A DNA stretch of 64,000 nt, taken from assembly GCA_951406725.2 (NCBI GenBank), contig OX597818.1:111662001-111726000 (forward strand), given 5' to 3'. Source of the DNA: Octopus vulgaris (taxonomy: Eukaryota). Positions 3,327-59,395 of this stretch are shown one piece after another. The notes under the pieces are model-generated. The model was given only the letters and a program-made list of their open reading frames with translations, did not search any database and was not told the DNA's origin. The position numbers and the translations under genes were made by a program. Numbering within the stretch: position 1 is the first letter of the stretch; each line of letters starts with the position of its first letter.

Positions 3327-3710
3327 GCACTCCGTCGGTTGCGACGACCAGGGTTCTGGTTGATCCGATCAACGGAACAGCTTGCTCGTGAAATTAACGT
3401 GCAAGTGGCTGAGTACTCCACAGACACGTGTACCCTTAATATAGTTCACGGGGAGATTCAGCATGACACAGAGTGTGACAATGCTGGCCCCTTTGAAATA
3501 TAGGTACAAGAGAAACAGGAAGAAAGAGTGAGAGAAAGTTGTGGTGAAAGAGTACAGCGGGGTTCGCCCCCCCCCCCGCCCCTGCCGGAGTTCGTGGAGC
3601 ATTAGGTGTATTCGCTCGATAAACACTCACAACGCCTGGTCTGGGAGTCGAAATCGCGATCCTATGACTGCGAGGCCCTTTCCCTAACCACTGGGTCATT
3701 GCACCTCCAC
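3327..3710 (-). mobile_element. SINE family B, near full length (tRNA-derived head with A/B boxes)
   Basis: Minus strand begins GTGGAGGTGCAATGACCCAGTGGTTAGGG...TTCGACTCCC and ends ...GTCGCAACCGACGGAGTGC. Homologous pieces lie at 9705-9870, 16740-16930, 19560-19705, 24436-24625, 31630-31755 and 60225-60532. Confidence 0.85.
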
Positions 3711-10514: not shown

Positions 10515-10611
10515 TCCTTGGGGCTGGCTAGATTGGAGCAATCTCGAGTATAACTAACCAAAATTGCAAAGATAATCTGGAACTCGACTGAGGAAAGAAA
10601 ACTCCGAATGA
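10515..10611 (+). ncRNA. Scrambled-order hammerhead motif, decayed copy (GAAA mutated to AAAA)
   Basis: GGCTGG/CTAACC (stem II), CTAGATT/AATCTGG (P4), GCAA/TTGC (III), ATC site, TCGAGT/ACTCGA (I), CTGAGGA at 10588-10594. Confidence 0.6.
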
Positions 10612-10692
10612 CCCATCCTTGTTTTTTCTTGTCCCTTTTTTGTATCATCTAGCTGTCTGGATGTTTTGCGTTCTTGTTTCAGTTTTTGTATT

Positions 10693-10957
<265 letters not shown>

Positions 10958-33612: not shown

Positions 33613-33965
33613 TGGGTGTCCTGTGACAGTGGTAGTCAAAGAAATGATCCGAATTTAGGAATAAAATTCACTATTTTATAGGTGCAGACGTGGCTGTGCG
33701 CTAAGAAGTTTGTTTTCATAATGCGTGGCACCTTCTACTATAGCCACAGATTGAACAAAGCCTTGTGAGTGGATTTGGTAGACGGAAGCTGAAAGAAGCC
33801 CGTCTCGTCGTCTCTTCTCAAAGCTCGTTTTTCCAGAGTTCACCACTTCGCCTTGTTATAGCTTAACAGCTCTTACCTTTTGTTATACTGTTTTGTTCTT
33901 ACTGTCCTGTTTTTGGCACCCCTTTAACACATCGCAAAAATCCCAAATTTTATTCAGTTTGCTTT

Positions 33966-34066
33966 GCGGAAAGAACTGTTTTAACGAAGTCGCGTCTTGT
34001 CCCAGCGTTCGAAATGCGGAGTAGATAAAACAGGGGACAACTGATGAAGGGATTGTTCTTTATGTT
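33966..34066 (+). ncRNA. Scrambled-order (non-circularly permuted) hammerhead, best-preserved copy
   Basis: GAAC/GTTC (II), TGTTTTA/TAAAACA (P4), CGCG/TGCG (III), GTC site at 33994-33996, TTGTCCC/GGGACAA (I), GAAA 34011-34014, CTGATGA 34041-34047. Confidence 0.75.
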
Positions 34067-34258
34067 GGCTGTCTCGTTTCTCTATTTATTTATTTCGTTG
34101 TTCGAAAAAAGTTCATTTTCCATGTTTTTGTTTTTTTATGTTCCCGTTTTTCATTTTGTTCACGTTGTTTTTTACGTCCTGTACACATATATGCAAGTAT
34201 ATACACATATATGCAAGTATATATACATATATATATATATATATACATATATATGCAA

Positions 34259-45692: not shown

Positions 45693-45782
45693 ATAAAACG
45701 GTAAGATAACAAAAGAAAGAAAGAGACCTCAATATTATGTAAATAGAGGAAATTTATCTATACAATATGTTACATTACTCGG

Positions 45783-45856
45783 TAGTCAAGATAAAACTCT
45801 GAGTTTCAGATGCCGAAGTGGAAATCCACAACACCATCTCTTCGGTTATCTGGCTA
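45783..45856 (-). ncRNA. PLE pLTR hammerhead (left arm), U4C variant
   Basis: Mirror copy of 48528-48601. Confidence 0.7.
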
Positions 45857-46045
45857 TTTGAAAACGTTATGAAAAAATACCGTTAAAAATGAAGGGAAAT
45901 TACTCTGTTATAACTCTGCTTTGCCTGCGTACTTATACATCGCTCGCATTTTTCGTCATAAAAATTATATAAAAATACATAAAAATATATAAAAATATAT
46001 AAATATATATAAAATCTTCTTGGGACATAACACAGAAAGCATGTT

Positions 46046-47573
46046 CTATCCGTTTTCTTTAGGGGACCAAAAACGTAACAGAAATTTAGTCACATGTGGG
46101 CATGATCCGAAAAGCTCTGTCCTTGTATTTAGACATGTGGTAGGGTCTAAGCTGCTTTTCCAGATAAGCCATCTCTCCATGTCGCATAAACCGCACCTTC
46201 CGCTGCCGTTAGTATAGGGCTTACATCTGGCCAAAATCTTCCATTGTATGTTATAATCGACACCTTTATCTCTTAAAGACCAAATATGATTGGATAATTG
46301 TGTCGCTTTTCTTTTGTTCCAGTGCCTAAAGCTCAAAGTGTGGTTATTGAACCTGGCCTTGAAATTACCCTCTGTCAGGCCCACGTATTTCTTCGTCGAA
46401 ACGGTGTCTTTAGTGGTTATAGAGTTTACGGTAGCTTCGTATATGATGGTCTTGGACATGCAAGCTCCATTTAGCGGGCACAATTCTTTATTCCTGCATG
46501 AACAGCTGTTTTCTTCTTGTGTTTTTTGTATGTTATGATTGATTATGTTTTTAAAATTGGTAGTTGAACTAAAACTAATTTTTAAATTGTGTCTATTGAA
46601 GAGTTTCCTATAAGCATGGTTAACTGGAAAATGTCTATCTATCAGTGCTAGGAAATATTTACCTATATTGAAGGCCACCTCGGGTGAGTAAGGGGGCGTA
46701 AACCAGATGACCTTCCTATTTCTATTATTCCTTTTCCTTATTGTTGGGCTGGTGATAGGTGTATATTTTATTTTTTCGCTAAAACCACTATCTTTTAAAG
46801 CTTTATTATAAACTGGGGCAACGCTATTGAAGATGTCCTCATTAGATGAGAGGCTAGAAATCCTCTTACTAATATTTTTAACTAAATTTTTGAATACTAT
46901 AGGGGGATGGCATGAACCTACATTAATATAACTTAGGCTATCATTGGGCTTCCTATAAGGCTTATAAATATTATTATTAAGATCTAAGGAAACGTCTAAG
47001 AAATTGACAACCGTCAGGTTAGTGTCTATAGTTATACTAAGTCCGAAGTGTTTCATTAACTGGATAATATCCTTCCTAAAACGATCTTGTGCTGGTCCAT
47101 TTGTATTAGCTGTTAAGGCGAGGGCATCATCTTTGTAGATGGCAAAATGTACGTTAGGGAATGTCTTACTGAAGGTATCTAGGAGAAAGAGTCCAATTAG
47201 ATCACAGATGCCTGCCCCATCATATGAACCCATGCTCACATCGAAAGCGCCCTCCGTGTCGGTGTTTTTTACCCACTTTGCATTCTCACTGAAAAGTAAT
47301 GTCTTTCTAGCATGGAAGATTATATCCTTATCATTGGTACTAATTTCTATGAAATCACTAGCGAAGATTAGGGCTTTATCTAGCAGTTCTTTAGAGATAG
47401 AGGCATAAAAATCAACAATATCGAATTGTGTAAACCTCGCTTTTTTCTTATTCTTAATAGCTTTAAACCAGTCTACGACTTCTATACTATTGGACCATTG
47501 CACTAGCCTAGTATCGGTCTTAATTTTCGTATTTATTTTATCTAAAATTTCTTTGCTAATAATCCCTAGTTCT
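46046..47573 (-). CDS. PLE polyprotein, 5'-truncated: reverse transcriptase plus C-terminal GIY-YIG endonuclease (probably Naiad-type)
   Basis: Uninterrupted frame with RT motifs FDIVDFYASI, MGSYDG, YKDD, FLDV, YRKP; linker CSCx5CPLxGxC; GIY-YIG IIYEA...YVGLT..FKARF.NH; C-terminal CGLC and CPH. The listed N-terminal MGMIRKALSL comes from the inverted filler. Confidence 0.92.
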
Positions 47574-47687
47574 AAGGACAGAGCTTTTCGGATCATGCCC
47601 ACATGTGACTAAATTTCTGTTACGTTTTTGGTCCCCTAAAGAAAACGGATAGAACATGCTTTCTGTGTTATGTCCCAAGAAGATTGT

Positions 47688-48338
47688 CCCCCTTACTCAC
47701 CCGAGGTGGCCTTCAATATAGGTAAATATTTCCTAGCACTGATAGATAGACATTTTCCAGTTAACCATGCTTATAGGAAACTCTTCAATAGACACAATTT
47801 AAAAATTAGTTTTAGTTCAACTACCAATTTTAAAAACATAATCAATCATAACATACAAAAAACACAAGAAGAAAACAGCTGTTCATGCAGGAATAAAGAA
47901 TTGTGCCCGCTAAATGGAGCTTGCATGTCCAAGACCATCATATATGAAGCTACCGTAAACTCTATAACCACTAAAGACACCGTTTCGACGAAGAAATACG
48001 TGGGCCTGACAGAGGGTAATTTCAAGGCCAGGTTCAATAACCACACTTTGAGCTTTAGGCACTGGAACAAAAGAAAAGCGACACAATTATCCAATCATAT
48101 TTGGTCTTTAAGAGATAAAGGTGTCGATTATAACATACAATGGAAGATTTTGGCCAGATGTAAGCCCTATACTAACGGCAGCGGAAGGTGCGGTTTATGC
48201 GACATGGAGAGATGGCTTATCTGGAAAAGCAGCTTAGACCCTACCACATGTCTAAATACAAGGACAGAGCTTTTCGGATCATGCCCACATGTGACTAAAT
48301 TTCTGTTACGTTTTTGGTCCCCTAAAGAAAACGGATAG
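47688..48338 (+). pseudogene. Inverted duplicate of the PLE endonuclease-coding 3' part
   Basis: Protein identical to the C-terminal part of the minus-strand ORF from PPYSPEV onward. Confidence 0.9.
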
Positions 48339-48527
48339 AACATGCTTTCTGTGTTATGTCCCAAGAAGATTTTATATATTTTTATATATTTTTATATATT
48401 TTTATGTATTTTTATATAATTTTTATGACGAAAAATGCGAGCGATGTATAAGTACGCAGGCAAAGCAGAGTTATAACAGAGTAATTTCCCTTCATTTTTA
48501 ATGGTATTTTTTCATAACGTTTTCAAA

Positions 48528-48601
48528 TAGTCAGATAACCGAAGAGATGGTGTTGTGGATTTCCACTTCGGCATCTGAAACTCAGAGTTTTATCTTGACT
48601 A
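48528..48601 (+). ncRNA. PLE pLTR hammerhead (right arm), U4C variant
   Basis: TAGTCAGATAA CCGAAGA GATG..GTGGA TT TCCAC..CATC T GAAA CTCAGAG TT TTATCTTGACTA; near-palindromic stem III. Confidence 0.72.
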
Positions 48602-48624
48602 CCGAGTAATGTAACATATTGTAT

Positions 48625-48743: not shown

Positions 48744-48792
<49 letters not shown>

Positions 48793-48974
48793 TGTTTGGA
48801 GTGATCACAAGTGATCACTACAGACGCCTGTTGCTTTTCCTTGTTGCTTGTATTCGTAATTGTGCACAATGTTCTCCGTTTTTTTCTTGTTTATTAAAAT
48901 TTTTTTTTGTTTTTGTTGCCGTACACATTCGCTAGGTTTCTTACAAAGAAGTCTAAAGCTCGTAGCTTAGACTT

Positions 48975-49070
48975 TTTTTTTAGGGCAACCAGATCGAACC
49001 ATCCCAAGTGTAACTGCCCGAAATGGTCGTGACTTCTGGTACTTGACTGATGAAAGAAAACCAAGAATAA
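48975..49070 (+). ncRNA. Scrambled-order hammerhead copy
   Basis: GGGCA/TGCCC (II), ACCAGA/TCTGGT (P4), ACCA/TGGT (III), ATC site 49001-49003, CAAGT/ACTTG (I), GAAA 49020-49023, CTGATGA 49047-49053. Confidence 0.7.
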
Positions 49071-49357
49071 CCCGTCTTTTTTGCTTGTCCTTCTAATTGT
49101 TGTTTCTCTTGTCCGCCTTTGTATCGTCTATCTGTCCGAACGTTTTAATGCCTTCTACTGCATTTTGTTCCATTTTCACATATACATATATACATACATA
49201 CATATATACATACACACTCACACACATACACACACCTTACAAATAAGAAAATGGAGAAACACATTAGTTGGTTTATCAGCTTTAGGATATTAGAATGTCT
49301 TATTTAATTAACAAAACTACAACCATAATAACATACATATATACAGTATATATACAC

Positions 49358-52486: not shown

Positions 52487-52547
<61 letters not shown>

Positions 52548-52619
52548 TATAAAAATTATATAAAAAAAAGGAACAAGAACGTGAAATACACAAAAAGACG
52601 AACACAAAAAACGGACGGG

Positions 52620-52717
52620 TCATTCGAAGCCTTTAATCTTCAGTCAGAAACCGGATCATCATAGCAAATTTCGGCTGATTAATTCTGATATTGCTCCGAC
52701 ACGGCCAGCCCCAATGA
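52620..52717 (-). ncRNA. Scrambled-order hammerhead copy
   Basis: Minus strand: GGCTG/CAGCC (II), CCGTGT/ATCCGG (P4, 1 mismatch), AGCAA/TTGCT (III, one extra T), ATA site, TCAGAA/TTCTGA (I), CTGAAGA, TCATT/AATGA closing helix. Confidence 0.65.
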
Positions 52718-53111
52718 AAAACTAAGCTGCGAGCATTAGATTTCTTTGAAAAAGGATCGAATGTAAACGAAACAAGGACAGAAAAACGGACGAAGCCACA
52801 CGAATATAAATACAAAAAAAAAACAAAAATAAAAATAAAAACAAAAACAATAGTGGTAATAATAGGATAACAGCAGGTGTCTTACGACTTTAGACAAATT
52901 TAGACAAATTTGACTTATCTATATATATATATGCATGTGTGTGTATATGTTTGTGTCTGTGTGTGTCCCAACACCGCTTGACAACCGATGCTAGTGTGTT
53001 TATGTCCCCGTAGCTTAGTGGTTCTGCAAAAGAGCCCGATAAAATAAGTACTAAGCTTGCAAAGAATAAGTCATGGGTCGATTTGCTGGACGAACACAAA
53101 AAACGGACGGG

Positions 53112-53209
53112 TCATTCGAAGCCTTTAATCTTCAGTCAGAAACCGGATCATCATAGCAAATTTCGGCTGATTAATCCTGATATTGCTCCGACACGGCCAG
53201 CCCCAATGA
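53112..53209 (-). ncRNA. Local duplicate of the 52620-52717 scrambled hammerhead
   Basis: Lies within the 135-bp copy 53089-53223; the single change converts an A-U pair to G-U in stem I. Confidence 0.65.
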
Positions 53210-53299
53210 AAAACTAAGCTGCGGTACTTCAGCAAGGCCACAGTCAAATGACTGAAACAAGTAAAAGAATAAATATAAATATATATATATATATATATT

Positions 53300-58061: not shown

Positions 58062-59218
58062 GAGATAGATAGAGAGAGAGATAGATAGAGAGAGCGTGAT
58101 ACAGGGTGGGTGAAAGTGAGGGCGAGGCTGAAGGAGACTGCTTCCCCGCCACCACCAACATTGCTAAGCGAGGGTTGATATATATGTAAACAGAGGCAGA
58201 CAGACAGACGGACAGGCAAGCAGACGCACAGGCAAGCAGACGGACAGGCAAGTAGACGGACAGGCAAGCAGTTATACTGTCAAAGAAGAACATCGTCGGT
58301 GTGATGAAAGGGGCGGATAAACCAGACAAGCAAACAAACTGCCGGACAAACAGACAGACAAACGGTCCGACGACGGAGAGGCCGACAGACAGACGGACGG
58401 ACAGCAACGTACGGACAGACGGAAGCTGCCTGTTGCTATGTAGACAGACACGGGTATAAAACGACCGACCGACACACGGGAAGAGGGTCTCCGAATTTTT
58501 TTTTTTTTGGCCAAAACCCCACGTTTTCGGCAACGGAGATTCCGGAAAAATGTCAAAAATCGGTATTGAGGGTGGCGACGGGACTGTCCATGGAATGTGG
58601 GTGTTTTAGTGTGTGTGTATACATATGTTAGTGTGTGTGTATGTGTTTGTATGTATGCATGTGTGTGTGTGTGAGTTTGCAGAAAGTCTATGTGCGTCTG
58701 TGTGCATATGTATTTTGTGCGTAAGCGTGTATATAAACCTATAGTGAGCGGTGTATATTTACATTATGTACGCAGGTGTGCATGTATGTATATTTGTATG
58801 ATGAAGTGTGTATAAATATGGCCACGTGTATTTGTTGTGTATATTTTTATACTTGTATGTGACAGAGTATATATATTTTAATGTCTTTGAGTGTGTGTGT
58901 GCATGTGTGGTAAGAAGCATGCTTCCCAACTATGTTTCCGGGTTCAGTCCCACTGCGTGACACCTCGCGCACGTGCCTTCTACTATAGCCTCGGACCGAC
59001 CAAAGCCTTGTCAGTGGATTTGGTAGAGAATTATGGTTGTATAGCTTTTTTTAAAAGTCTAGAACTTATTTTATCGGTGTCTTTTTTCCGAACCGATATG
59101 TTGTGTGGACATAAACAATACAAAACAAACACATACACAAAGACACACACACAAAGACAGACACAAAGACTGACACAGACATATACACACACACACACAC
59201 ATTCATATAAATATGTGT

Positions 59219-59275
59219 CAGCCGAAATTGCGAGGATGATCCGGTTCTTGACTGAAGATTCGAGGCTTCGAATGA
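59219..59275 (+). ncRNA. 5'-truncated scrambled hammerhead (enzyme half only)
   Basis: CAGCC GAAA TTGC..ATCCGG T TCTTGA CTGAAGA..GAATGA; same family as 52620-52717. Confidence 0.55.
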
Positions 59276-59330
59276 CCCGTCCGTTTTTTGTGTCGTCTAT
59301 TTGAGTGTTTTGCGTTGTTGTCCCATTTTG

Positions 59331-59395
<65 letters not shown>

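Follow-up and report, generated by a model that had tools for sequence, protein, structure and literature searches.

A candidate split-core hammerhead ribozyme in repeat families of Octopus vulgaris and in Naiad retrotransposons

The motif and its host element

The analysed window comprises 64,000 nucleotides of the Octopus vulgaris genome (contig OX597818.1, positions 111,662,001 to 111,726,000 of the forward strand). On its plus strand, at 48822..49174, it contains a 5'-truncated copy of a repeat family, here termed family A, which is inserted into (TA)n. According to blastn searches this copy corresponds to positions 404-748 of the family unit and is 84% identical across 355 columns to the whole unit at locus L142. 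The preliminary description of this region correctly located the host element within (TA)n, but it set the start at 48790 instead of about 48822. A near-perfect foldback indeed exists at the 5' junction (48791-48828); its central 20 nt were, however, found in 0 of 189 family loci when up to 3 mismatches were permitted, hence the hairpin belongs to this insertion only and does not represent a family feature. The 3' part of the copy is a U-rich tail (49070..49174) whose fixed terminus, TTTTGTTCCA, borders on (TA)n, and an alignment of 30 copies showed that this end is sharp and common to them.

The motif spans about 48926-49069, with all parts on the plus strand. It begins with the 5' strands of a closing helix P0 (48926..48942, comprising P0b CATTC at 48926-30 and P0a TTTCTT at 48937-42) and a hairpin P5 (48945..48980), which ends just 5' of a detached stem II 5' strand. 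This strand (GGGCA, 48983-87, G10.1 being 48983) and the subsequent 5' strand of P4, the helix through which stems I and II would interact (ACCAGA, 48988-93), together cover 48983..48993. Block S (48998..49009) is composed of the stem III 3' strand (ACCA, 48998-49001), the AUC triplet including UC at 49002-03, the predicted cut 49003/49004 and the stem I 3' strand (CAAGT, 49005-09). It is followed by block G (49015..49027) with the stem II 3' strand (TGCCC, 49015-19, C11.1 being 49019), GAAA (49020-23) and the stem III 5' strand (TGGT, 49024-27), and by block C lacking its stem II strand (49035..49053), i.e. the P4 3' strand (TCTGGT, 49035-40), the stem I 5' strand (ACTTG, 49041-45) and CUGAUGA (C3-A9, 49047-53). 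The P0 3' strands (49054..49069) begin immediately after A9. The preliminary description had read the arrangement as a scrambled hammerhead; the four helices and the core elements lie where it had placed them, and homologues back this reading, its helix assignments and the cut predicted after 49003, while the two extra helices P0 and P5 had been overlooked.

Both P0 and P5 are present in the minimum-energy fold of the window copy, whereas the single-strand fold of 48925-49070 is no stabler than usual (z -1.17), in a kind of calculation that cannot show pseudoknots. The Rfam scan of the window gave 0 hits at the gathering score, which is expected because the models assume nested orders. It had also been proposed that C49004 is a damaging change, and indeed 29 of the 30 best family A copies have T at this place, which completes a six-pair stem I; the mismatch is private to the window copy. 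Breaking the first stem I pair, it has probably weakened this copy.

Further copies of related repeats occur in the window. The family B copy at 33936..34243 (plus strand) has the same layout with unrelated helix letters, as had been noted for the locus at 33966. The family D copy at 10515..10704 (plus strand) breaks off at the stem II strand and has decayed, with G12 changed to A, and a family C copy is located at 52533..52772 on the minus strand. Beyond the loci named previously, we found a second family C copy (53088..53221, minus strand) and a family C-like copy (59218..59363, plus strand), which is truncated 3' of the predicted cut site. Initially, four of these loci were regarded as divergent sequences sharing one architecture and an invariant core. 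However, families A, C and D share about 73% identity across this region and therefore represent homologous rather than independent inventions, and the core is variable, since the copy at 10515 has AAAA and CTGAGGA and the copy at 52620 has UA and CTGAAGA.

Upstream of the family A copy, a Penelope-like element with a C-terminal GIY-YIG domain occupies about 45760-48617 in an inverted and partially tandem arrangement. It carries its own minimal hammerhead in standard order at 48532-48597, which is present in both inverted arms. In both arms this hammerhead has CCGAAGA in place of CUGAnGA and a U before GAAA, variants that resemble the Hydra-clade motifs given in the accessible part of the PMC8557442 supplement.

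Conservation of pairing and core among the families

Eight sequence types were compared, namely five repeat families of this genome (A-E) and three metagenome contigs. The first look yielded 2612, 4232, 4632 and 2740 candidates for families A, B, C and D, respectively, which are not copy numbers, while exact 22-23-letter words matched 162, 139, 151 and 1048 times with 0 matches for the reversed controls. Finally, 58, 54, 49, 49 and 30 distinct copies of families A to E were included; they were selected by similarity or by exact words within the motif, which partly biases the conservation of core letters, and conservation within a family mostly reflects descent. Because MAFFT, when aligning families A, C and D, set stem II one column out of register, the cross-family counts were made by anchoring in scripts.

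For 23 of the 30 best family A copies, 94.1% of the cells were paired (89.9-97.3% per helix), compared with 27-44% for the control with slid partners. At stem II position 3 of these 23 copies, A-U and G-C were found in 10 copies each, which probably traces back to one inherited event. Family B shows G-C 14 times, C-G 4 times and U-A once at stem II position 4 among 25 copies. Across all five families, 88-99% of the cells in stems I to III as well as 89-98% of those in P4 are paired (P4 of family B: 191/198). For the additional helices of family A, the paired cells amount to 363/380 for P0a, 172/182 for its extension P0b and 270/288 for P5. P0 is weak in families B (198/235) and E (3 bp, 55/64), and in family C it opens with two U.U pairs; P5 of family D reached 190/269, a count made with the register set wrongly. 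When strands were swapped between the eight types, only 36-64% of the positions were paired and 3-8 of 56 swaps paired fully, own-strand pairing being 100% by construction in this comparison. Thus, the homologues keep the pairings with changed helix letters across lineages as well as within families A and B, in line with the covariation claimed in the preliminary description.

In each of the five families the most frequent core letters match the catalytic ones, with N7 and H17 varying between families, and the three metagenome contigs have the catalytic core letters as well. The pattern that is kept comprises C3, U4, G5, A6, G8, A9, G12, A13, A14, the A15.1-U16.1 pair, an H17 that is not G, the G10.1-C11.1 pair and a free N7; the first stem II pair, G10.1-C11.1, is G-C in 8 of 8 sequence types. 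The full core together with the first four pairs of four helices is intact in 16 of the 50 spanning family A copies. Family C (L056-L080, L223-L252) can be divided into two subfamilies, in which stem III either forms six perfect pairs or has one bulged U, and which also differ at stem I position 5 (A-U versus G-C or G-U).

Relation to known hammerhead types and to Naiad elements

Hammerheads have been described by Eckert et al. (2023) as combinations of blocks C, G and S, and the non-circular orders SGC and CSG were validated. The accessible sections of that paper (PMC10085705) treat the blocks as unbreakable, with at most 1-2 nt inserted between CUGAnGA and the stems in known alignments, mention CSG examples from soil metagenome DNA, and state that no SGC RNA was found in the genome of a known organism. 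The core order of the window motif is S-G-C, with P4 connecting stems I and II on their far sides. Type SGC (HRIMA-1 and its variants) resembles it in the order S, G, CUGAnGA, in the short linker between stems I and II, in the extra helix tying these stems and in the two pseudoknots. However, its stem II strand directly follows A9, whereas in our motif this strand is detached from CUGAnGA and located at the 5' end, and P0 and P5 occupy the gap between A9 and G10.1. Moreover, as far as the sources consulted extend, type SGC is known from environmental RNA, while the split-core motif resides in animal retrotransposons. Type CSG shares the cyclic order, with the stem II 5' strand and the interaction helix followed by S and G, but in the motif the piece consisting of the interaction strand, stem I and CUGAnGA is at the 3' end, which corresponds to a circular permutation broken at A9|G10.1. 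With its block C broken, the motif belongs to none of the six types CGS, GSC, SCG, SGC, CSG and GCS.

Some of these features have precedents. Each of the two unusual joins has a counterpart among the validated SGC and CSG ribozymes (PMC10085705), and hammerhead variants with additional helices are mentioned in the available part of PMC13725137, which cites Weinberg et al. (2015); the block C statement of Eckert et al. from 2023 came later and from the same laboratory. The (+) hammerhead of CChMVd tolerates 1 extra nt between A9 and G10.1, and U10 speeds cleavage (PMC3705267), whereas the motif has a two-helix arm carrying both RNA ends at this step. We found no description of the split-core form or of permuted Naiad hammerheads in the openly accessible literature searched; likewise, no split-core hammerhead is described in the accessible portions of PMC13725137, PMC10162972, PMC3088659, PMC6155905 and PMC544870.

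A link to Naiad elements became apparent from their 3' ends. Craig et al. (2021) reported Naiads to be without canonical hammerheads and listed 10 'HHR_core' and 8 'HHR_half_core' cases fitting no descriptor, and the accessible text of that study (PMC8557442) proposes no permuted fold for them. From the same text, Naiads share with the family units the (TA)n targets, fixed 3' ends and partial tandems. The autonomous carriers of the motif are Naiads: in family E and in the metagenome contigs L383, L384 and L386 it lies in the 3' UTR of Naiad-type reverse transcriptase (RT) genes, whereas the window element is non-coding. The consensus 3' ends of Naiad_Obim and Naiad_Ovul display the split-core layout, and an 18-letter word from this Octopus Naiad layout has 279 exact matches in the genome (control 0). 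At locus L125, an RT fragment is followed by a UTR of ~800 bases, the motif and (TA)n; this RT matches PF00078 at E 2.4e-5, which falls below the curated cut-off, and is the only Naiad mark found there. At 9 of 30 Naiad-RT loci of this genome the family E motif is situated downstream in sense orientation.

The metagenome scan with the L125 RT gave 10 loci. In L383, L384 and L386 the six-helix layout recurs with new letters in the 3' UTR of a Naiad-type RT; P0 starts 0 nt after A9 and P5 ends 0-1 nt before G10.1, the latter spacing being also found in L189. L384 shows further Naiad marks by eye, namely an N-terminal GIY-YIG-type domain, CxC and DKA, with the RT located C-terminally. Hence, the motif was found in 3 of the 5 close RT relatives whose sequence continues for more than about 250 bases beyond the stop codon; of the remaining loci, 4 stop at this codon or close to it, L389 and L390 have a UTR without the motif, and L392 encodes a distant RT. 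Shuffled UTRs gave a four-helix parse in 0 of 2000 cases for each of the three contigs (0/6000), and Rfam reported no hammerhead hit at E<=1 on six contigs. Behind the distant RT of L392, at ~1195-1235, a hammerhead-like motif in standard order was observed.

In addition, the last ~350-500 bases of all 54 published Naiad consensi were surveyed by eye, with nothing computed. In this survey the split-core layout was recognized in 11 of the 54, i.e. Bfor, Chem-3, Amil, Aacu, Anas, Movir-2, Plae, EuTe, Obim, Ovul and Esco, which represent about eight independent cases from five phyla; stem I of Bfor has just 2 pairs and stem II of Esco is imperfect. P0 with P5 could be made out at the ends from Acropora, Chem-3, Movir-2 and Bfor. 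Type CSG was seen by eye in 6 of the 54 consensi, all from nematodes (Nbra-1, -2, -3, Hcon, Hpol and Asuum, the last with one additional U after A9), while Ptep and part of Dst-4 appeared SGC-like with long inserts and the remaining consensi were not parsed as hammerheads. The motif was absent from the last ~350 bases of the thirteen Chlamys consensus ends inspected in the same way. In this regard it may be mentioned that the CSG ribozymes that Eckert et al. describe from soil might be nematode Naiads. Another conserved motif, GACGGGTG ... GCTYACTC ... CACCTG, was noticed by eye in Naiads of bivalves, a hemichordate, a fish (Cmel) and Clytia-1/-2; it holds the place in the 3' UTR that ribozymes have in other Naiads and is a candidate self-cleaving RNA with the class not assigned. 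Furthermore, L389 at ~3560-3620 and the ends of Naiad-1_Movir and Naiad-4_Chem contain, in their 3' UTRs, words that we take to be twister-like, and Rfam gave no hit on L389. These words suggest that Naiads swap ribozyme classes. In the light of the shared layout, the split-core motif is likely the ribozyme that has been missing from Naiads.

Returning to the window element, the family A unit is non-coding, has roughly 770 nt, starts after (TA)n and possesses a fixed end before (TA)n. In 17 of 30 loci the unit start is preceded by a core or tail piece, and tandem periods of 756, 765 and 770 were found. The idea that homologues extended in the 5' direction might join an ORF of a Penelope-like element was not borne out, because none of 30 loci has a Naiad or Penelope ORF attached upstream of the unit; tblastn with Naiad proteins against loci of families A-D gave no hit, and none of the 30 Naiad-RT loci terminates in family A. 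Animal non-LTR retrozymes are described, in the available parts of bioRxiv 10.64898/2026.07.22.740005 and PMC6155905, as non-coding tandem units with one hammerhead each and a proposed origin from Penelope-like elements. Family A agrees with them as a non-coding tandem unit of a few hundred bases with one ribozyme each, but it has the split-core form instead of the ordinary hammerheads reported in those sources. The window element is therefore best read as a piece of a non-autonomous, retrozyme-like unit, and family A is probably a Naiad-dependent retrozyme. We infer that the Naiad protein moves the unit because ribozyme layout, target and 3'-anchored structure are shared, and not from its sequence. 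One RNA read joins the unit end to its start and the same joint exists in a contig from run X16, which tandem DNA explains equally well.

Proposed ribozyme, alternative readings and implications

Collectively, our data favour a hammerhead fold in the knotted order S-G-C, in which CUGAnGA is split from stem II by a two-helix arm and which is predicted to cut itself after AUC at 49003 in intact copies; we assign this reading a probability of roughly 0.7. Such an RNA would work like a hammerhead although it stands outside the six named types, and it is likely to be catalytically active in intact copies. P4 and stem III would nest, while stems I and II would cross both as two pseudoknots and thereby rebuild the usual active site, with A9 still placed on G12 and the G10.1-C11.1 pair. 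P0 could be stacked on P5 to form a lateral arm keeping the split backbone in place. Since CUGAnGA is transcribed last, cutting might become possible only once the whole domain has been made. In tandem units, one cut each would release monomers of roughly 770 nt, possibly circularised, which the Naiad reverse transcriptase may copy into (TA)n sites.

It is less likely that the motif is a real hammerhead-derived fold whose cleavage has been lost or is too slow, and which offers the Naiad protein a structure for binding or pausing at the template's 3' end. Activity with such a split core would be without precedent, because Eckert et al. state that known alignments contain no more than 1-2 inserted nt between CUGAnGA and its stems (PMC10085705). 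Reads from three RNA runs (one study, related source) cross the cut site in families A and D and show no pile-up of ends, in libraries that were fragmented and behave as unstranded, and 63 of 100 tail-anchored family A copies run past the site. After two duplicates were dropped from these 100, the remaining 98 copies had 7 truncation ends at 0..+12 versus 2.9 expected (p 0.027), in an interval picked after viewing other sets, and 1 versus 1.0 expected at -2..+2, i.e. no enrichment at the exact site. Per nt, truncation amounted to 0.0082 at 0..+12, 0.0074 at -30..-14 and 0.0033 overall, so that the excess is modest, nonspecific for the site and raised on both sides of it, as a fold blocking the RT would give. 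Against such a non-cutting role, the exact catalytic pattern is kept while all helix letters change, and the nematode Naiads seem, by eye, to carry the validated CSG type at the same place. Copies beginning at or a few bases from the predicted cut were observed at L142:1233 (runs X21-X23), L108/L109, L164, L220 and L250; one of the near-cut-site starts lies in an expressed transcript, and the tail-anchored count has no significant pile-up.

It is very unlikely that the motif acts as a conventional hammerhead of type SGC or CSG, or as a two-unit dimer, in which the strand after A9 would provide stem II and the upstream strand would be incidental. The frequent tandem arrangement of the units would fit a dimer, and in family B this alternative stem II pairs 135/210 cells (64%), mostly as G-U. 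However, pairing of the strand after A9 with the strand before GAAA reaches only 25% in family A (59/232 cells, with A.C as the first pair in 57 of 58 copies), 0% in C, 3% in D and 50% in E, and the first pair is mismatched in all five families. Moreover, the upstream strand covaries with its partner within families A and B and between lineages, and the strand after A9 is already paired in P0.

That the motif serves the neighbouring Penelope-like element (46046-48617) as its ribozyme or 3' part, a tie implied by the preliminary description, is highly improbable. Only ~200 bases separate this element from the motif copy and both reside in (TA)n, a closeness that most likely arose because the (TA)n target is shared; the reading is largely refuted by the element's own standard-order hammerhead in both inverted arms and by the missing similarity, as a blastn search of the window with the family A unit returned nothing within the Penelope element and tblastn with its protein matched few family loci at scattered positions. 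Finally, a chance arrangement of short words can be dismissed, although block-shuffled windows match at times (6 hits in 300 on both strands for the mismatch-tolerant descriptor versus 2 in the real window, and 2 in 300 versus 1 for the strict descriptor) and a single copy is thus suggestive rather than decisive and exceeds chance only modestly, because the homologues give the strong support: the same six helices, spelled with other letters, return in five families and in three unrelated contigs, which keep the same gene position and whose shuffled UTRs never parsed.

In a broader view, it appears fairly probable that active knotted hammerheads exist in the Naiads of at least five animal phyla, including a seventh, block-breaking topology with a two-helix arm at A9-G10.1 and the nematode CSG type. 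Permutation would then have hidden the 'missing' Naiad ribozyme, non-circular hammerheads would be common in animal genomes, and the present genome would harbour thousands of candidate copies belonging to several retrozyme families driven by Naiads. If true, this would extend the hammerheads by a topology excluded from the present block scheme, and it would mean that the A9-G10.1 step can bear a whole domain plus both RNA ends, which bears on active-site folding and ribozyme design. The descriptor of the motif is applicable to any genome. Non-circular permutations would move from environmental RNA into animal genomes. Hammerhead-free Naiads were used to argue that ribozymes are maybe dispensable passengers of Penelope-like elements (PMC8557442, in its accessible part); if our reading is true, it would overturn the view that Naiads spread without hammerheads.
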